Virus record (IMG/VR): IMGVR_UViG_3300026430_000073
Span: 1 to 64,000 of that record
Direction: 5' to 3' (one strand)
DNA length: 64,000 bases
Source of the DNA: an uncultured virus (IMG/VR IMGVR_UViG_3300026430_000073)
Taxonomy: Duplodnaviria > Heunggongvirae > Uroviricota > Caudoviricetes
The notes beneath the pieces are model-generated. The model did not search any database, was not told the origin of the DNA, and worked only from the letters and a program-made list of their open reading frames with translations. Of this stretch, positions 11,631 through 52,284 are shown piece after piece. The first letter of the stretch is position 1; every line of letters begins with the position of its first letter. The position numbers and the translations under genes are program-made.

Positions 11631-13451
11631 ATGTCCGATCCAGTAATCCACAACCTTGTTGATGCTCAGTTCGTCGACAAGTATCGCCATTGCCTCGATC
11701 ACGGCTGGTTCCAAGAGGACCGCACCGGGGTGGGTACCTACGCCACTCACGCAGCGGTCATGCGCTTTGACTGCCAGTTCGGTCAGATGCCGATCATCAG
11801 CCTGCGCGGTATCCTACCTGAGAAGTTCCAGCACGAGATGCATTGGTTCGTCTCCGGTAACACCAACATCAAGTACCTGCGCGACAACAAGGTAGGTATC
11901 TGGGACAGCTGGTTCATCAAGGGCACCGACAAGTACGATGAGCCGCGCATCAGGCGCCGCACTTGCCAGCAGCGTATCGACCTGTCGTGCACCACCCTCG
12001 AAAATACCGAGGCGATCCAGAAGTTCATCGAACGTCGCATCGAGATCAGCGGCATTGGTGGTCCCGAAAGACTTTCGCTGCTGCCCGGGCGAAGCTCGAA
12101 GCAGGTGACTTACTCCAATCTGGCCGATGCTGACATCCATGAGATCCACAAGTTCCTTGACCAGTTTGGCGTAGCTCGCGTGTACGAGTTCTGGGACGCT
12201 GTGGAAGGCGACACACTCACCACCCAAGAACGTATCGAGCTGGCTATACAGACGGGGAAGGTCTACATGGTGGTGCCGTTCCTCCATGGGTTCCATCCGG
12301 GCGGTGGTCGTGAGCCGTACGAGTACCTGGACTTCAAGCATCCGAACATCGCCAGTAACTTCGGGTTCGATCGCGACCAGGTCGACGGTTTCAACCACAT
12401 CCTCGACTACAGCGGCATCCCACGCCGCCGTAACGTGCCGAAGCGCCTGTCGCTCAAGCGTCGGTTGGCGCGCCTGTCGAAGAACCGCGAACATGAATGG
12501 AGCCGAATCATTGGCGCTATCATGATGGGTGAGGACGATCCTGCTGAAACCAAGACCGTCCCGGTGGTCGTGTTCCGCAACGGCAAGTTCGAGGACGATA
12601 TCCTCAACAACGCCCAAGTGGAACGGGTAGAGAAACTGCTGGACTTCTTCGGCATCAATGCGTGGCCTCTGCTTGAAGCTGACATCGGTGCGGGTGGTTA
12701 CGGCGCACAGTGGCGCAAATGGCAGGATTGGCAAGTAGTGTCCAATGCTGACAATGCCGTCCCTAGCTTCTCCGACTACATCAAGCAGGGCTACTTGAAG
12801 TGGGGCGAGATTCAGCCAGAGTTCACCACTCTCGGTCACTCGGTCATGCACCGCAGCATCGACCAGTTGCAGAACTGTATCGATACGCTACGCACCAACC
12901 CGGATGACCGTCGGATCATCGTGACTGCTCACAACCCCGGCCGTACCTGGCAGGCAGCGCTTCCTCCATGTCACCTGTACTTCCAGTTCACCTCGCAAGT
13001 GCTCACCATGGCGCAACGCGTGAAGCTGCTGAAGTACAAACATCGCGATGACGTCGAGCTTCCCCAAGGCGGTGCTGGTAGCGTCGATGAATATCTCGAC
13101 AAGCAAGACATTCCGCGTCGTGGCCTGAACTGCTTCGTCCTGTTGCGTTCCAGCGACCTGCCGCTGGGAGCCGTGTTCAACGTAGCTCAGTACGCCTACC
13201 TGCTGCACATGGTAGCTCACGTCACCAACCACGCTCCGATGGAACTCGTAACGGTCGGCGTCAATGCTCACATCTACCTCAACCAGGTCGATGCGATCAA
13301 AGAGCTGATCTGGCGCGACTCCGACGGTGACTTCGATGCCCGCATGGTCATCAACGGTAAGTTCGACAACATCGACGACATCAAGTTCAGCGATGTTGAG
13401 ATCACCGGCTATACCCACGGTCCGTTCATGGACATCCCTGTCGCTGTATAA
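11631..13451 (+). CDS. thyA: Thymidylate synthase with large repeated insertions
   Basis: DRTGVGT, EMHWFVSG, IWDSW, YGAQWR, IDQL, RRIIV, ALPPCH, RSSD, FNVAQYA, AHIYLN. Confidence 0.92.
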   Translation: MSDPVIHNLVDAQFVDKYRHCLDHGWFQEDRTGVGTYATHAAVMRFDCQFGQMPIISLRGILPEKFQHEMHWFVSGNTNIKYLRDNKVGIWDSWFIKGTDKYDEPRIRRRTCQQRIDLSCTTLENTEAIQKFIERRIEISGIGGPERLSLLPGRSSKQVTYSNLADADIHEIHKFLDQFGVARVYEFWDAVEGDTLTTQERIELAIQTGKVYMVVPFLHGFHPGGGREPYEYLDFKHPNIASNFGFDRDQVDGFNHILDYSGIPRRRNVPKRLSLKRRLARLSKNREHEWSRIIGAIMMGEDDPAETKTVPVVVFRNGKFEDDILNNAQVERVEKLLDFFGINAWPLLEADIGAGGYGAQWRKWQDWQVVSNADNAVPSFSDYIKQGYLKWGEIQPEFTTLGHSVMHRSIDQLQNCIDTLRTNPDDRRIIVTAHNPGRTWQAALPPCHLYFQFTSQVLTMAQRVKLLKYKHRDDVELPQGGAGSVDEYLDKQDIPRRGLNCFVLLRSSDLPLGAVFNVAQYAYLLHMVAHVTNHAPMELVTVGVNAHIYLNQVDAIKELIWRDSDGDFDARMVINGKFDNIDDIKFSDVEITGYTHGPFMDIPVAV

Positions 13452-25987: not shown

Positions 25988-26163
25988 GGACGAGCTATGA
26001 AACATAAACCTCCGCTCAAGCCATTCACGGCTAAGCAGAAGAAAGCAATGTGTCGATTGAAGATCATCATGGCAGTTACCATGGCGATCTCCATGTTGAT
26101 GCGTTGATCCACAAGCCGCGGGGCTAACCACCCCGCGTTCTTTTTTTTTGTCGAGAAATCAAA

Positions 26164-26472
26164 ATGACCCGAGAAACCATGGACTTCCGTCAACGTATCG
26201 AGAACGTCATCAAAGACGTGGCCGCAGAGAATAACCTTCCGTTCACTGAGGTAGGTCTGGCCGAACTTACCGAGCTCATGCAGCCTAAGGTTCATGAGAT
26301 CATCTGGGTGCTGCTCGGTCTGGATCCTGAAGATGTCGAGGTGAAGATCGCTATCACCGCATCTCCTGTAGAGCGGGCAACGCATACCTGGAAGACCGAC
26401 ATCAACATCAAGGCCGGTACTCCTCGTCCTGGCTGTAAAGGTTGCCGGAGTTGCTCGAAGGGATCTCATTGA
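26164..26472 (+). CDS. Hypothetical protein with C-terminal CxxCxxC
   Basis: ORF ending GCKGCRSCSKGSH. Confidence 0.65.
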   Translation: MTRETMDFRQRIENVIKDVAAENNLPFTEVGLAELTELMQPKVHEIIWVLLGLDPEDVEVKIAITASPVERATHTWKTDINIKAGTPRPGCKGCRSCSKGSH

Positions 26473-26518
26473 TTTCCGTACATTTTTACGGAACGTGTAG
26501 ATAAGATGTAAGAAAGAT

Positions 26519-26594
26519 AGTGCCGTAGCTCAGCTGGTAGAGCGCACCCCTGATAAGGGTGAGGTCGGTGGTTCAATCCCACTCGGTACTACCA
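26519..26594 (+). tRNA. tRNA-Ile(GAU)
   Basis: AGTGCCG/CGGTACT acceptor, CACCC-CTGATAA-GGGTG anticodon arm, encoded CCA. Confidence 0.95.
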
Positions 26595-26603
26595 CTTGCA
26601 TCT

Positions 26604-26687
26604 GGATGGGTTCCCGAGCGGTCAAAGGGAGCGGCCTGTAAAGCCGCCATTAATTTTTCGAAGGTTCGAATCCTTCCCCATCCACCA
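26604..26687 (+). tRNA. tRNA-Tyr(GUA)
   Basis: GGATGGG/CCCATCC acceptor, GCGGC-CTGTAAA-GCCGC, long variable region, CCA. Confidence 0.95.
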
Positions 26688-26692
26688 TTTAC

Positions 26693-26757
26693 GACCCTTG
26701 CCAGGCAGCGTATTACGCAGCGCGCTTAACTAGCCGTAGATCGGCTGGAGGGTCACC
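26693..26757 (+). ncRNA. Short tRNA-like RNA (acceptor-like stem + T-arm-like hairpin, no anticodon arm)
   Basis: GACCCTT/GAGGGTC stem then A-CC; TAGCCG-TAGAT-CGGCTG hairpin directly before the 3' strand. Confidence 0.5.
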
Positions 26758-26763
26758 CTTTGT

Positions 26764-26839
26764 TCCACGATAACTCAGTCGGTAGAGTAGCGGACTGTTA
26801 ATTCGCCTGTCCCTGGTTCGAGTCCAGGTCGTGGAGCCA
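26764..26839 (+). tRNA. tRNA-Asn(GUU)
   Basis: TCCACGA/TCGTGGA acceptor, GCGGA-CTGTTAA-TTCGC, G73, CCA. Confidence 0.95.
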
Positions 26840-26847
26840 TTTTCAAT

Positions 26848-26925
26848 CGGGGTATAGCTTAGCCTGGCCTAAAGCAGCGGCCTTTGACGCCGCGATCATT
26901 GGTTCGAATCCAATTACCCCTGCCA
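26848..26925 (+). tRNA. tRNA-Gln(UUG)
   Basis: CGGGGTA/TACCCCT (1-72 mismatch), GCGGC-CTTTGAC-GCCGC, G73, CCA. Confidence 0.9.
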
Positions 26926-26933
26926 AATCAGAA

Positions 26934-27100
26934 GCTCGGTACTCCTATGCCAAGCCTAAGATCCTAGCCCCGTGCCCTCCCTACCCGAGGCGCTATAGCT
27001 GCACGTAAGGCTTTGTAGTTACATTAGACCCTACGACGACGAGGAGCCAGTCTGTTGGCTTTGAGTTATCAGGGAAGCGCCAGCGCCGCACATGCCGAGC
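26934..27100 (+). ncRNA. Unknown multi-stem structured RNA
   Basis: Nested pairings GCTCGGTA/TGCCGAGC, CTCCT/AGGAG, AAGCCT/AGGCTT, CGTGC/GCACG; no ORF. Confidence 0.55.
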
Positions 27101-27227
27101 ACTGTTCTAGCATGGTCAGACACTAGCTAGTACCGCGCAAACCTGCCTGAAGCGATATGAAGGCACCTTGGCCACTAGGGTAATTAGTGGCAAGACCTGG
27201 GGAATGTCCTCCCCAGGCGCTTATTCT

Positions 27228-27376
27228 AACTCTGTAGCTCATTGGTAGAGCGTCCTCACCTTCCTGAAAAGGATTGCAGGTTCGAGTCCTGCTTGGCCGG
27301 CACTATCGGCCAATGGCGGAATTGGTAGACGCAAACATGAGGAAGGCAGCGGGTTCGATTCCCTGCTAGAGTTACC
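27228..27376 (+). ncRNA. Double-elbow tRNA-like RNA 1 (permuted class-II tRNA body in place of the anticodon loop)
   Basis: Outer acceptor AACTCTG/TAGAGTT with D and T arms; inner variable arm, T arm, TTGGCCG/CGGCCAA acceptor and Leu-type D arm, in permuted order. Confidence 0.85.
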
Positions 27377-27384
27377 TATTCAAT

Positions 27385-27534
27385 AGCACTGTAGCTCAGT
27401 TTGGTAGAGCGTCGTCCCTCCCTTAAGGTCGCCGGTTCGAGTCCGGCATCGCCCGTATGGGTGATTAGCTCAGTTGGTTAGAGCGTAAGGCCAACTTGAC
27501 GAAGGTCACTGGTTCAATTCCAGTCAGTGCTCCC
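27385..27534 (+). ncRNA. Double-elbow tRNA-like RNA 2 (permuted class-I tRNA body in place of the anticodon loop)
   Basis: Outer AGCACTG/CAGTGCT; inner CCTTA/TAAGG stem, GCCGG-TTCGAGT-CCGGC, ATCGCCC-GTAT-GGGTGAT, D arm. Confidence 0.9.
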
Positions 27535-27552
27535 TATTCAGAGAAACTTGTG

Positions 27553-27828
27553 ATGCGCAATAAGCAACTGAAAGAACTCGAGGTTAGTCCAGAACTGGAA
27601 GCCAAGATAATCAGGCTGCTGCACGTCCACGGGGATCTCTACACCACCGACCTCGTTGCGTTCGATAAGGTCGGTAATTTCTTCAGAAAGCAAACCGAAG
27701 AAAGCATCACCGCTATGGGTAAAGAACCTAAGTGGTGGCGCTGGAAAGGTTTTGCCGGTACCGAAATCCTGTACGATGGTTTCTTTGATGACCTCGAACA
27801 GTTCATGATCTCGGAAGGTTTGCTTTAA
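27553..27828 (+). CDS. Hypothetical protein within the RNA cluster
   Basis: Start moved to ATG 27553 because the track's TTG start lies inside RNA 2. Confidence 0.7.
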   Translation: MRNKQLKELEVSPELEAKIIRLLHVHGDLYTTDLVAFDKVGNFFRKQTEESITAMGKEPKWWRWKGFAGTEILYDGFFDDLEQFMISEGLL

Positions 27829-27835
27829 GCTACAT

Positions 27836-27947
27836 GCTTCCTTAACTCAGTTGGTAGAGTGCCGTCTTCGAGCCTCCTGGCCCCTTAAATGGGGCAGGCT
27901 CACCATACCTGGCGGAAGTCCGAAGTTCGATTCTTCGAGGAAGCCCC
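27836..27947 (+). ncRNA. tRNA-scaffold RNA 3 (hairpin in place of the anticodon loop)
   Basis: GCTTCCT/AGGAAGC acceptor, D arm, CCGTC/GGCGG stem, CGAAG-TTCGATT-CTTCG T arm; ends C-CC-TATT. Confidence 0.85.
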
Positions 27948-27953
27948 TATTCT

Positions 27954-28040
27954 CGTTCCTTAGCTCAGCTGGTTAGAGCGTCGGCCCCTTAGCTAAAAGA
28001 CACGCCGAAGGTCCGTGGTTCAAATCCACGAGGAACGCCC
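27954..28040 (+). ncRNA. tRNA-scaffold RNA 4 (18-nt loop in place of the anticodon loop)
   Basis: CGTTCCT/AGGAACG, TCGGC/GCCGA stem, CGTGG-TTCAAAT-CCACG; ends C-CC-TATT. Confidence 0.85.
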
Positions 28041-28070
28041 TATTCATCCAACCACCCGCAGAGATCTTTC

Positions 28071-28796
28071 ATGACTCAGAACTATCTGGTGAACAAGAAC
28101 GTTACTGTCCTCGCCTGGTCGTCTCAATCCGGCGAAGATGGTAAGCCTGGCTACAACGTCAAAGACGAAGCCGGCAACGTAACCTGGCAATCGGAAGAGC
28201 AGTTCCTGAAAGATCACTTGCCGCTCGGTCACATCGACAGCCGCCCGGCGCATGTCCAGCGCATGATTATCGAGCAAGCGCAACTGACCGCGCGTCACAA
28301 AGGTCTGTGCTCGTTCCTCTACAACGTGGGTCAGGGCGCCAAGCCTGAAGGTCTTTCCGATCTCGATGTAGACATGATGATGCAGCAAGGCGCGTTCATG
28401 GACAAGTACTCCACTGTCCTGCGTCGTCGCATTGGCCGCGCTACCGAGCGTCGCCTCGAAGCCAAGAACCTGCCGTTGGTCGATGGTAAGTTCAACGTGT
28501 TCGGCTTCGGCGATCCCAGCGTGTTGGATCTGACCGACAGCGTCGGCGCTATCCGCTTCAACAACGTCCGCACGGCCGATGGTATCAAGCTGTCCCATGA
28601 CCTCTCTGCTATCAAGCAGATCGAAGGTCAGCGTACTCAGAACTACACCCTCAGCATCCCTGGTGCTGAAGACATCTACCTGAAGGTAGATCCTGAGCGC
28701 GCCTTGCTTTCCATCACCGTGCCGTCCAGCATCAAGACCGAGCTGTTCTTCGACCTCGAGGTTGTTCTCGAGAACCCGAACTACCGCTGCGCGTAA
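28071..28796 (+). CDS. Phage protein with 'GY.V....G...W' N-terminal domain and crAss001_48-like helical domain
   Basis: GYNVKDEAGNVTWQSEEQF; HVQRMIIEQAQL..R...L..F...Q...M..Y..VL.RRI. Confidence 0.55.
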   Translation: MTQNYLVNKNVTVLAWSSQSGEDGKPGYNVKDEAGNVTWQSEEQFLKDHLPLGHIDSRPAHVQRMIIEQAQLTARHKGLCSFLYNVGQGAKPEGLSDLDVDMMMQQGAFMDKYSTVLRRRIGRATERRLEAKNLPLVDGKFNVFGFGDPSVLDLTDSVGAIRFNNVRTADGIKLSHDLSAIKQIEGQRTQNYTLSIPGAEDIYLKVDPERALLSITVPSSIKTELFFDLEVVLENPNYRCA

Positions 28797-28803
28797 GTTT
28801 TAT

Positions 28804-28929
28804 CTCCGCCTAGCTCAGATGGTAGAGCGCACTCTTTCGGTTCGATTCCGAACATGCCCATCCCTTCGGGGTTCGGCGTGGATCAGGTACATGAGTGAGG
28901 TCCGTGTCTCGAAAACACGGGTGGAGACC
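28804..28929 (+). ncRNA. tRNA-scaffold RNA 5 (degenerate double-elbow)
   Basis: CTCCGCC/GGTGGAG, D arm, CACTC/GAGTG; insert contains TTCGG-TTCGATT-CCGAA and CATGCC/GGCGTG capped by a UUCG hairpin; ends A-CC-TATT. Confidence 0.8.
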
Positions 28930-28933
28930 TATT

Positions 28934-29083
28934 TTCCAACGTGGTATCGCTAAAGTGTCGCAATCGTCCAAAACGCTACATCAGGACATCGCCCAGCAAT
29001 GGGGAAAATTTAGGTACGACCCGAAATCCTAACTGCGACCGCTCAACAATACAATAGGCGATACACTGGGTATGTTGGAGACC
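28934..29083 (+). ncRNA. Unknown structured RNA with tRNA-like 3' end
   Basis: TTCCAACGT/ATGTTGGAG, GTATCGC/GCGATAC, GTCGCA/TGCGAC stems; ends A-CC-TATT. Confidence 0.6.
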
Positions 29084-50974: not shown

Positions 50975-51385
50975 ATGATGTCCTACCGTCCACAAGTTAC
51001 CGAAGCAAACTTCCAGAAGAAACGCGTCCTGATCGATCCCCGCAAGAAGTTCGTAGGTGCGTTCAAGAACCCTAACATCAAACTGTTCCTGCCAACTGAT
51101 CAACTCGGTAACGCGACTTGCCCTACCAAGGCATGCCGTATGGAATGCTGGACTCCTGATTTCGAAGCTGCTAACCCGCGCATGCCTGGCGTGTTCGAAA
51201 GCAGCGGCGTGGGCCTGAGCAATGCAGTCATTAAGCTCGAAGGCGATGACGTTTACGCCTCCCTGGTGCAGAGCGTCGCTCTGAGCGGCTTGACCGTTCT
51301 CAATGGCTGGCTCAAGACCATGAAGCGTACGCCTGAAGGCGACATTCACTCCTTCGAAGTATTCATCGGTCAGGGTGGTCTGTAA
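50975..51385 (+). CDS. Hypothetical protein
   Basis: AGGAG RBS. Confidence 0.65.
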   Translation: MMSYRPQVTEANFQKKRVLIDPRKKFVGAFKNPNIKLFLPTDQLGNATCPTKACRMECWTPDFEAANPRMPGVFESSGVGLSNAVIKLEGDDVYASLVQSVALSGLTVLNGWLKTMKRTPEGDIHSFEVFIGQGGL

Positions 51386-52284
51386 TGGCTAAGCGTGCAC
51401 TCGTCCTCTTCTCTGGTGGGATGGACTCCACTTACCTCATGTGGGAAATGGCAGAGGCAGGAACTCAGGTCGACTACATCTACGCTGACGGCGCCCAGGG
51501 TCGCAATAAGTCTTCCGTCGAAGAGGACTCCCGCGGGGAGATCATCAGCCTGATCAAAGAGTATTGGCCAGGCTGGTATCCGCATGGCGGCGGGCGTGTG
51601 TTGTCGAAGGTCAATCTGTCGGCGACGCCTAAAGCCAAGTGGCGTCAAGCGCTACCTTGGATGGTAGCTGCAATCGAGATGGTCGATCCCGATGTCCACA
51701 CCTCGGTCAACATCGGCTATTGCGCTGACGATGACACGCTGCAAGAGATGCACTCGATGATCGAGGCGTGGAATGCCATGTGGCGTTTCACCAAGAAAGG
51801 TGATGTCGTCCCCTTGAAGTTCCCGTTGCGACACACTACCAAGTTCGCCATGATGCGCGATCTCCCACCAGAGATCTACGCTGCTACCTGGGTCTGTGAA
51901 CTACCGACTACCAATGCCCGTAAGGGCGCTACAGCGTGCGGGCGTTGCGAGCCGTGCATGACGCGTGAAGTGGAGAAGTTCCGCTTCAAGCTGAAGACGC
52001 ACAAGACTCTGGAAGAACATCACGAGTCCATCGCCAAACGCTGCGAAGATCTCAAGGAGCGTAACCGCAACAAGTGGCGACAGGCAGTGGAATCGGAGCA
52101 CACCTCCTCCGCACCGCAAGAAGTCAAACAACTCACTGCGCCTGTCGAGCGTACCGTCACCGGCGGTGAGGTGATTCGGATTCCGATCAGCAAGACTCCC
52201 GTAACGGATCAGATGCGCCAGCTTCTCGATGAGAACCCCGACATGGAGATGGAAGACGCTATCCATCGTCTGGCTGAGATGTAA
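51385..52284 (+). CDS. QueC-like PP-loop ATPase
   Basis: LVLFSGGMDST; TWVC...CGRCEPC zinc site. Confidence 0.75.
   Translation: MAKRALVLFSGGMDSTYLMWEMAEAGTQVDYIYADGAQGRNKSSVEEDSRGEIISLIKEYWPGWYPHGGGRVLSKVNLSATPKAKWRQALPWMVAAIEMVDPDVHTSVNIGYCADDDTLQEMHSMIEAWNAMWRFTKKGDVVPLKFPLRHTTKFAMMRDLPPEIYAATWVCELPTTNARKGATACGRCEPCMTREVEKFRFKLKTHKTLEEHHESIAKRCEDLKERNRNKWRQAVESEHTSSAPQEVKQLTAPVERTVTGGEVIRIPISKTPVTDQMRQLLDENPDMEMEDAIHRLAEM

Follow-up and report, generated by a model that had tools for sequence, protein, structure and literature searches.

We describe here an RNA element, e1, of an uncultured jumbo phage of the phiKZ-like type, in which the conserved outer shell of a transfer RNA (tRNA) has lost its anticodon and carries, in place of the anticodon loop, a second module of tRNA origin that has kept its ACCA end. 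The stretch of DNA that was analysed (the window) consists of the first 64 kb (64,000 nucleotides, nt) of a 74-kb IMG/VR virus record (IMGVR_UViG_3300026430_000073), whose completeness is estimated at 30%, and e1 is counted as the sixth of seven RNA genes that lie on one strand at 26519-28045. We lean towards the explanation that e1 is a non-decoding tRNA mimic made of two nested tRNA parts, which would be excised by tRNA processing and would act as a decoy or scaffold. The sequences used for comparison were four in number, namely the window, the IMG/VR loci L012 and L014, and the phage genome G005, and they represent three lineages; a further locus, L013, is of the same type as L012.

The letters of e1 (27836-27947, plus strand) read GCTTCCT-TA-ACTC-AGTTGGTA-GAGT-G-CCGTC-(TTC GAGCCT CCTG GCCCC TTAAAT GGGGC AGGCTC ACCATACCT)-GGCGG-AAGTC-CGAAG-TTCGATT-CTTCG-AGGAAGC-C-CC, where the part in brackets is the insert. 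The Rfam tRNA model (RF00005) aligned end to end (model positions 1-71) with positions 27836-27945 at 48.0 bits, compared to a gathering score of 29, and the corresponding E-values were 1.1e-08 for the 2 kb searched and 3.5e-07 for the whole window. The 41 unmatched nucleotides of this alignment all fall within the anticodon loop. Letters that make the tertiary contacts of tRNAs are present (U8, A14, G18G19, A21 and the T loop UUCGAUU). The minimum free energy (MFE) fold of the single sequence is a cloverleaf with a two-tier hairpin at -42.8 kcal/mol (z = -2.48, with 4 of 200 shuffles being as good). The stem equivalent to the anticodon stem, CCGUC/GGCGG, encloses 44 nt instead of the 7 nt of a normal loop, and these consist, in order, of UUC, a helix of 6 base pairs (bp), the bulge CCUG on the 5' strand only, a 5-bp helix with the loop UUAAAU, and ACCAUACCU. 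At its 3' end the element encodes C73-C-C followed by TATTC, with no A76. A preliminary description of this DNA had read acceptor, D and T arms and a two-tier hairpin in e1; its letters match ours exactly, and both the Rfam score and the MFE fold agree with its reading. The same description held that the tRNA body displays a hairpin instead of an anticodon, which is borne out by the 44 nt enclosed and by the finding that no single excision gives a canonical loop. Programs in their usual settings passed over the element: e1 is not among the five genes that ARAGORN called in the window by default, nor among the five matches of the Rfam run at gathering thresholds with fast filters.

In order to assess whether this structure is conserved, we aligned e1 of the window with those of L012 and L014, which carry it at the same position. 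In the three-way alignment 32 pairs were 100% paired in 92 cells, and five pairs were changed on both sides, two of them in the acceptor stem and one each in the D stem, the anticodon stem and the lower helix of the insert. The covariation score was reached by 4 of 500 shuffles. Control structures slid by 1-3 columns showed 40-51% pairing and zero compensatory pairs, and RNAalifold, run unguided, returned the same structure with 31 pairs, five of which were compensatory. As read from the per-pair tables, each change within a stem retains its pair. The identity of e1 between the window and L012 is 80.9%, with the neighbouring gene at 79.5% overall and 69.7% at third codon positions. The three sequences belong to two lineages, and we take the three-way covariation as suggestive rather than decisive. 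In the four-sequence comparison with G005, for which helix coordinates were chosen by hand, all six helices are paired in every sequence, and most stem letters differ from those of G005 (see Table 1). The outer acceptor stem has two pairs compensated relative to L012 and L014 and five relative to G005, and the D-stem pair 10:25 is A-U in the window, G-C in L012 and G-U in G005. Pairing that is conserved with compensation indicates that the structure is under purifying selection.

These results bear on the possibility that e1 is a dead gene, that is, a tRNA gene broken by a selfish hairpin or by a tRNA-carrying insertion and now drifting. The region is indeed plastic, with one open reading frame (ORF) and two modules that come and go among relatives. 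However, every helix of both shell and insert is kept through many compensatory changes, the loops and the ACCA are invariant, and no other copy of the insert was found in the window, nor in IMG/VR outside this phage, which leaves drift a very improbable account. A search of IMG/VR for the exact insert returned contigs of the same phage only (two stretches), and the signature consisting of a D arm, G, 5 nt, YYC and GANCC occurred in these phages only, in six stretches that represent four distinct variants. The features expected of a mobile insertion are also lacking in e1: the insert does not occur in multiple copies at different sites, and its inner unit is not a complete decoding tRNA.

The origin of the insert can be read from G005, a complete phage genome of 310,882 bp (completeness 100) that was found via a pattern scan for insert-bearing tRNA-like genes. 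Its RNA array is homologous to that of the window, with a blastn identity of 73% over the region of two modules that we call dumbbells and that precede e1. The G005 shell (GCGAUAG ... UCCGU / ACGGA ... CUAUCGC-U-CCA) holds, between the linkers CCC and UCCAA, a complete inner cloverleaf with a 7-bp acceptor stem and the end AGGGGUC-A-CCA, which scores 58.9 bits as a tRNA. The inner unit of the window has no D arm and no anticodon arm, and its loop is UUAAAU where the inner T loop of G005 is UUCAAAU (TTCAAAT in DNA letters). Since G005 has at this site an entire tRNA-like gene with ACCA at its end, the insert of the window is a reduced inner tRNA. On this comparison of letters and positions, we read the two-tier hairpin as a tRNA-derived minihelix of the acceptor/T type with ACCA, homologous to the inner tRNA-like gene of G005 and not an arbitrary cargo, and the CCUG bulge would be the point where the D and anticodon arms leave the inner tRNA. 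The inner unit of G005 is complete, yet the loop at its anticodon position is CCAATAC, with C33, which is not the loop of a decoding tRNA. No anticodon survives in either layer of e1.

An ACCA at this place also lends itself to another interpretation, namely a nested precursor of the "Russian doll" kind. RNase P would cut before G27870 and a 3' nuclease after the ACCA (27905), freeing a 36-nt minihelix that ends in CCA, and the remaining outer shell would consist of two halves joined through pairing in the acceptor and anticodon stems, or would be only a scaffold for folding and processing. In G005 the freed product would be a whole tRNA-like RNA. This ranks as the strongest rival explanation, although we regard it as unlikely. 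ACCA follows the inner helix in all four sequences, the outer end of the window type encodes only NCC, and the inner unit of G005 has the full cloverleaf, the 7-bp acceptor stem and the ACCA that such a product would need. Minihelices of the acceptor/T type with a 3'-RCCA are good substrates of RNase P. In vivo, the tRNA-like YrlA RNA of M. smegmatis, whose 7-bp acceptor stem is closed, undergoes cleavage by RNase P and addition of CCA, according to the accessible text of Chen et al. 2014 (PMC4201824). Nevertheless, compensatory changes keep all four helices of the outer shell, and a mere wrapper would hardly account for this, given that other tRNA-like units of the array stand free and are processed with no such shell. 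In the window the inner acceptor helix is 6 bp long and not 7, and the inner loop, TTAAAT, does not have the C found in a T loop. The contigs, which show ends poorly, had neither ends nor joints at 27869/27870 or 27905/27906.

The next question is whether e1 could decode after removal of its insert. We read by eye every 7-nt loop that can be built by joining the two ends of the 44 nt, and none combined U33 with a purine at 37; the window has U at position 33, and L012, L014 and G005 (three of four sequences) have C. With introns allowed (-i), ARAGORN called e1 as Ser(cga) in the window and as Leu(taa) in L012, so that the anticodons differ between orthologues. e1 is not a decoding tRNA, and the insert is probably not an intron. 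The opposite view, according to which excision of the insert and ligation of the flanks would yield a decoding tRNA, in the manner suggested for the "enigmatic" introns of Lak phages, seems to us hardly credible. It is true that phage tRNA genes with short inserts are common, as shown by the pattern scan below, and that Lak phage tRNAs carry introns, one of which possibly encodes a tRNA itself (PMC6784885, in the part of the text available). However, a bulge-helix-bulge was not seen on reading e1, where the TTC and CCTG bulges on one strand flank a 6-bp helix and do not form the 3-4-3 motif. The preliminary description had argued from the small size of the insert against a group I intron, and this stands: 44 nt is far below group I size, and the insert matched no Rfam intron family at E-values up to 10, nor any Rfam family overall. 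In the complete G005 genome, RtcB, the PF09414 RNA ligase and the PF09511 ligase were not found, where the PF09511 search proves little as its controls were matchless as well.

The possibility of splicing had been raised in the preliminary description, and the contigs speak against it, if weakly. Across the insert, those from three metatranscriptome runs and one DNA run follow the order of the genome without a joint, and the three RNA-library runs thus show no joined form; rare forms are lost in contigs, and DNA may be present in the libraries. A single low-depth joint, from 27414 to 27831 (depth 2.6, one contig), links two similar D arms and looks chimeric. As a separate observation, a contig of run X22 that covers 26701-28036 ends at 28036 and continues in Illumina adapter letters, 2 nt before the discriminator of e2, the companion shell downstream of e1. 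This contig end is a weak hint of an RNA end at the 3' end of e2.

The pattern scan mentioned above ("canonical D arm, 55-85 nt, T loop") gave at least 115 loci in IMG/VR (L163-L277). For the matches listed, the 118 ARAGORN entries (introns allowed), or 117 by our own count, include 77 with an insert, which is located directly after the anticodon in 19 of the 77, and 12 of these 19 were Tyr(gta). The other entries among the matches listed comprised 14 with a complete tRNA that starts at least 35 nt past the D arm, 12 that are ordinary tRNAs followed by a further T loop, and 15 without a call. Many of the matches listed are tRNA-Tyr(GTA) genes with inserts of 13-42 nt directly 3' of the anticodon, and a family consisting of a hairpin and then ACAGCAA is recurrent. 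Because default tRNA finders miss e1 and one pattern scan of IMG/VR gave at least this many loci, insert-bearing phage tRNA-like genes may be widely overlooked.

In the explanation that we favor, the outer part of e1 supplies a complete tRNA shell with acceptor stem, D arm, T arm and 5-bp anticodon stem, and the tRNA-derived inner module replaces the anticodon loop, joined by a 3-nt pyrimidine linker on one side and a linker of 4-5 nt on the other; this anatomy is shown by the sequences. e1 would be transcribed within the array of tRNAs and tRNA-like RNAs of approximately 1.5 kb and excised by the host, with RNase P acting at the 5' end and an endonuclease together with trimming at the NCC-UAUUC trailer. 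The product could then mimic a tRNA by offering one tRNA elbow and two acceptor-type ends to a tRNA-recognising factor, and would be unable to read codons. Candidate factors are RNase P, CCA-adding or modification enzymes, and a host tRNA-directed defence nuclease or toxin. A role as a decoy or sponge appears most likely, followed by that of a stable ribonucleoprotein scaffold. Phage tRNA genes have been described as counter-measures to host tRNA-cutting nucleases (PMC10264068, PMC11464382 and PMC11555353, in their accessible parts).

Several points weigh against this explanation. The comparison has only four sequences from three lineages. The ACCA that follows an acceptor-type helix looks, by its letters, like a substrate of RNase P and 3'-end processing, and cutting there would favor the nested precursor. 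The equation of the apical hairpin with the inner T arm of G005 would be a homology by position and not by sequence. The "RNA" libraries cover the whole phage at near-flat depth (4079-5537 in X22) with contigs of up to 234 kb, which means that they may contain phage DNA. As for partner proteins, searches of the 74-kb contig and the complete G005 genome revealed no TROVE, RtcB, RNA ligase or CCA-adding enzyme. Finally, complements of the unpaired 3' linker AGGTATGGTG with at most one mismatch number 7 compared to 2.27 expected, and no target is common to the relatives. The preliminary description had suggested a search for complementarity to the unpaired segments; for the 3' linker the sole perfect match is e1 itself, and the idea found no conserved target.

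A broader proposal, which we put forward as speculative and rather doubtful, is that some jumbo phages run a modular "tRNA chassis", in which tRNA shells with tRNA-derived cargo serve as multivalent baits for enzymes that grip the elbow and the CCA end. The cargo would be a CCA-ending minihelix in the window, an entire tRNA-like RNA in G005 and, in each of the dumbbells, a circularly permuted tRNA body. Such a chassis could disarm host tRNA-directed immunity, or could retune RNase P and 3'-end processing during infection; it might do so through self-dicing driven by RNase P, which would yield a free minihelix and a look-alike of a tRNA nicked in its anticodon loop. Returning to e1 as a non-decoding mimic, it represents a different phage use of the tRNA fold, in which the structural hallmarks are selected, decoding is given up and a second acceptor-type end is present. 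Should RNAs of this kind act as decoys or scaffolds, they would form a novel, RNA-based class of tools for host takeover or anti-defence and a natural counterpart of engineered tRNA scaffolds.

Table 1. Coordinates of e1, its parts and the other RNA features of the array in the window, with the letters found at the same place in the relatives
Feature	Position	Strand	Basis	L012/L014	G005
Whole element e1 (outer tRNA-like shell and insert, to discriminator C27945)	27836..27945	+	Rfam, fold, covariation
Outer acceptor stem, 5' strand GCTTCCT (partner 27938-27944)	27836..27842	+	7/7 pairs kept in 4/4 sequences	ACTTCTT	GCGATAG
D arm ACTC-AGTTGGTA-GAGT	27845..27860	+	sequence and Rfam match
Anticodon-stem equivalent, 5' strand CCGTC (partner GGCGG, 27911-27915; pairing CCGTC/GGCGG)	27862..27866	+	5/5 pairs kept	CCACC (CCACC/GGTGG)	TCCGT (TCCGT/ACGGA)
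5' linker TTC	27867..27869	+	four-sequence comparison; CCC in three relatives	CCC	CCC
Inner minihelix	27870..27901	+	both helices paired in 4/4 sequences
Inner acceptor-like helix GAGCCT/AGGCTC	27870-75 with 27896-901	+		GAACCC	GATCCCT
Inner bulge CCTG	27876-79	+
Inner T-arm-like hairpin GCCCC-TTAAAT-GGGGC	27880-95	+
ACCA (discriminator A and CCA), directly 3' of inner acceptor helix	27902..27905	+	4/4 sequences	ACCA	ACCA
3' linker TACCT, following ACCA	27906..27910	+	differs among relatives	GACCT / ACCT	TCCAA
Outer T arm CGAAG-TTCGATT-CTTCG	27921..27937	+	Rfam and four-sequence comparison
Outer acceptor stem, 3' strand AGGAAGC	27938..27944	+	four-sequence comparison
Trailer CC-TATTC (with C27945, CCCTATTC)	27946..27952	+	CC encoded, A76 not
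Four ordinary tRNAs, Ile-GAT, Tyr-GTA, Asn-GTT and Gln-TTG, all with encoded CCA	26519..26925	+	ARAGORN, Rfam, sequence
Two dumbbell modules	27228-27374, 27385-27532	+	sequence reading; partial tRNA matches of 25-27 bits; YrlA 37.7 bits
e2, companion shell, 18-nt "loop" holding a 3-bp hairpin with loop AGCUAA	27954..28038	+	Rfam 54.7 bits; ARAGORN tRNA-???

The other members of the array are given in Table 1. Its true tRNAs belong mostly to the group with GUN anticodons (queuosine), these being Tyr and Asn in the window and Asp, Tyr, Asn and His in L012 (2492-3278). We take this set to be the target set of colicin-E5-type anticodon nucleases, which would fit, as a tentative lead, an island given over to tRNA-directed conflict. 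Between the tRNAs and the dumbbells lies a non-coding stretch of approximately 300 nt (26930-27225, plus strand), 81% identical to L012 and matched by no Rfam family, which ends in a GC-rich hairpin (27196-27217) followed by CGCTTATTC. Each dumbbell is a tRNA shell around a circularly permuted tRNA-like body, with the order T arm, 7-bp acceptor hairpin closed by a loop, and D arm; in the G005 homologue (L280, about 175-325) both connecting helices are rebuilt from different letters. The preliminary description had compared the internal loop of e1 to the junction in another RNA, which it called RNA 2, and the likeness holds in that the upstream modules (27228-27532) share with e1 the plan of shell, linker, cargo and linker, as well as a 3' linker rich in C and A. 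An element present in L012 (3281-3415) and L014 (about 55-185) and absent from the window, the third tRNA-like shell e3, has a 6-bp anticodon stem that encloses three small hairpins and the end CACCAACGU; its 3' linker is near those of e1 (ACCAACCU in L014) and of the dumbbell (CCAACUU).

The dumbbells raise the possibility that e1 is a partner of Ro60 (Rsr) of the Y-RNA type, the tRNA-like fold tethering Ro60 to an exonuclease as in YrlA. We consider the chances of this to be slight. The neighbouring modules match YrlA below threshold (37.7 bits compared to a gathering score of 69), and a free-standing permuted module between genes of another phage (L300, 1480-1581) gives a full-length YrlA match of 36.6 bits against the same gathering score. 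Some jumbo phages encode Ro60/TROVE proteins (PMC7824862, accessible text). The topology of e1, however, is opposite to that of YrlA, as its acceptor end is open and its distal end closed, and the best YrlA match that touches e1 (27913-27983) has 25.0 bits, again compared to 69. TROVE was not found in the 74-kb contig, four related fragments, the complete G005 and the 90%-complete genome G006, with the phage of the window covered to 30% and a host-encoded Ro60 being possible. GGUCCGA-like letters in the variable loop and T stem of e1 in L012 were considered as a Ro-binding motif and set aside as a coincidence, since they are base-paired T-stem letters that are common in tRNAs.

Downstream of e1, the companion shell e2 stands directly upstream of a gene for a protein of 241 amino acids (aa) in all three variants. 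With introns allowed, ARAGORN called e2 as Lys(ctt) in one variant and Thr(cgt) in another. Its covariation consists of one compensatory pair (CUU/AAG compared to CGU/ACG), which was matched by 172 of 500 shuffles and is not significant alone. The middle base of the "anticodon" of e2 covaries with a partner nine positions further on and therefore lies in a helix. A 91-aa ORF (27553-27828, plus strand), which has no family match, separates the second dumbbell from e1; it is absent in L012 and L014, where the RNA genes abut.

This arrangement could suggest that e1 and e2 are processing punctuation or cis elements, that is, no more than cut sites for RNase P and RNase E, or 5' untranslated region (UTR) structures, by which the mRNAs of the ORFs at 27553-27828 (upstream) and 28071-28796 (downstream) would be separated and tuned. 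The stop of the upstream ORF is followed after 7 nt by e1, 32 nt lie between the end of e2 and the next start codon, the order of e1, e2 and gene is kept in every variant that has the gene, and the UTR 3' of e2 is nearly invariant. On the other hand, L012 and L014 are without an ORF before e1, and G005 has the nested element and not the downstream gene. Moreover, a plain tRNA fold would suffice for punctuation, and the conserved cargo and its ACCA would be unexplained. We judge such a role improbable as the explanation of e1.

The 3' ends of the array also differ in kind. The tRNA-like units of the window end in NCC and then TATTC (27375-27381, 27532-27539, 27945-27952 and 28038-28045), whereas the true tRNAs end in NCCA; the units of G005 end in NCCA and then (N)GUUUCA. 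All three exact sites of CCCTATTC in the window, as well as one ACCTATTC, lie at the 3' ends of tRNA-like modules. A count of three in the window was reached by 11 of 100 shuffles, and only the placement of the sites is telling. The trailer appears to resemble an RNase E-type site just after the CC, and to judge from its letters the NCC-UAUUC trailer may be a 3'-processing site. In IMG/VR CCCTATTC occurs in 17 stretches, of which 15 were checked with Rfam, the two loci of the window's own type being left out. In two unrelated contigs (L024 and L031), CCCTATTC is preceded by a tRNA-like gene with a large insert, which the tRNA model matches at 39.2 and 47.8 bits, respectively; the tRNA-likeness of the other hits is a matter of sequence reading and ARAGORN. 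In cellular genomes, among the 80 loci listed for the pattern, 31 are ordinary tRNAs and 49 are without a tRNA (some being coding sequence). The trailer was therefore rejected as a wider signature, the motif alone marking nothing.

No sigma-70-like promoter was found in 26000-29000, and no strong terminator-like site, consisting of a hairpin and then a T run, was found inside the array, where the only such site with a real T run lies within tRNA-Tyr. Inverted repeats were also considered over 26400-28100. Two candidates, a perfect complement of 10 nt that would pair a dumbbell loop with the start of tRNA-Ile and a complement of 15 nt (87%) to the anticodon arm of tRNA-Ile, were both rejected as being at chance level for 1.7 kb, and the latter is not kept in L012.

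The assignment of the phage to the phiKZ-like jumbo phages goes along with window genes for a phiKZ-type internal head protein, an S80 prohead protease and many functions of nucleotide metabolism. Sequencing runs that contain the phage are labelled soil metagenome. A blastn search against 50,697 phage records gave matches to ordinary tRNAs only, covering at most 10% of the query. The downstream 241-aa protein led to six IMG/VR loci, three from the same phage, two at 76% identity and one at 67%, and its gene is absent from G005. A peptide pattern of this protein found 36 stretches in metagenomes, in two of which relatives are encoded, namely the same phage (a 248-kb contig) and the contig of L012. 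Elsewhere in the window, the thymidylate synthase ORF (11631-13451, plus strand) has 606 aa, and its Pfam match is C-terminal only (best stretch 349-606) and in two stretches, which points to an N-terminal extension or fusion together with an internal insertion. A QueC-like ORF is located at 51385-52284.

We found no account in the literature of a phage-encoded tRNA shell whose anticodon loop carries a minihelix or a permuted tRNA, though Table S6 of Devoto et al. may list comparable cases. A 2023 survey reports many viral tRNA-like candidates, and the layout of e1 is not described in the available part of its text (PMC10690425). A 2026 preprint, as far as its accessible text goes, presents three unrelated bacterial families of tRNA mimics. 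What is new in e1 is the ACCA-bearing minihelix nested inside a selected shell without an anticodon, together with the array of permuted companions; the kind itself is not new. The introns of Lak megaphages are similar to e1 in being short, conserved inserts, not of group I, in the anticodon region of phage tRNAs, and a tRNA inside a tRNA is possible there, as in the G005 homologue; the Lak genes differ in that their anticodons can be recognised (Thr-TGT, Tyr-GTA), and they are interpreted as tRNAs with introns (Devoto et al. 2019, PMC6784885, in the portion available). In e1, by contrast, there is no anticodon in either layer, and the inner unit is reduced to an acceptor/T minihelix with ACCA.

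YrlA (RF02553) is likewise non-decoding, has a tRNA-like D arm, T arm and acceptor stem, and is also encoded by phages; its permuted order of T arm, closed acceptor and D arm is shared with the dumbbells and not with e1 (PMC4201824, accessible part). Compared to YrlA as described in the same part of that source, e1 is unpermuted, scores below threshold and is without the 5' GNCGAAN0-1G motif in its terminal stem, and no Ro60 gene was found nearby or in G005. The species 1 and 2 RNAs of T4 (rnaC and rnaD) are, as e1, small non-tRNA RNAs inside a phage tRNA cluster, and rnaC has a T arm and an acceptor-like end, with only a 17.5-bit match to tRNA-Sec. They have neither sequence similarity to e1 nor a cloverleaf shell or nested minihelix, and were dismissed as relatives for want of a real likeness; we know of no function for either. 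In engineered tRNA scaffolds, a cargo RNA is mounted at the anticodon arm of a tRNA body, and this chassis provides for its processing and stability. Murine gammaherpesvirus 68 reportedly makes tRNA-linked small RNAs in which a tRNA body stands beside a microRNA (miRNA) hairpin as cargo. The cargos of these two systems are aptamers or miRNA hairpins, whereas that of e1 is a piece of tRNA, natural and encoded by a phage.

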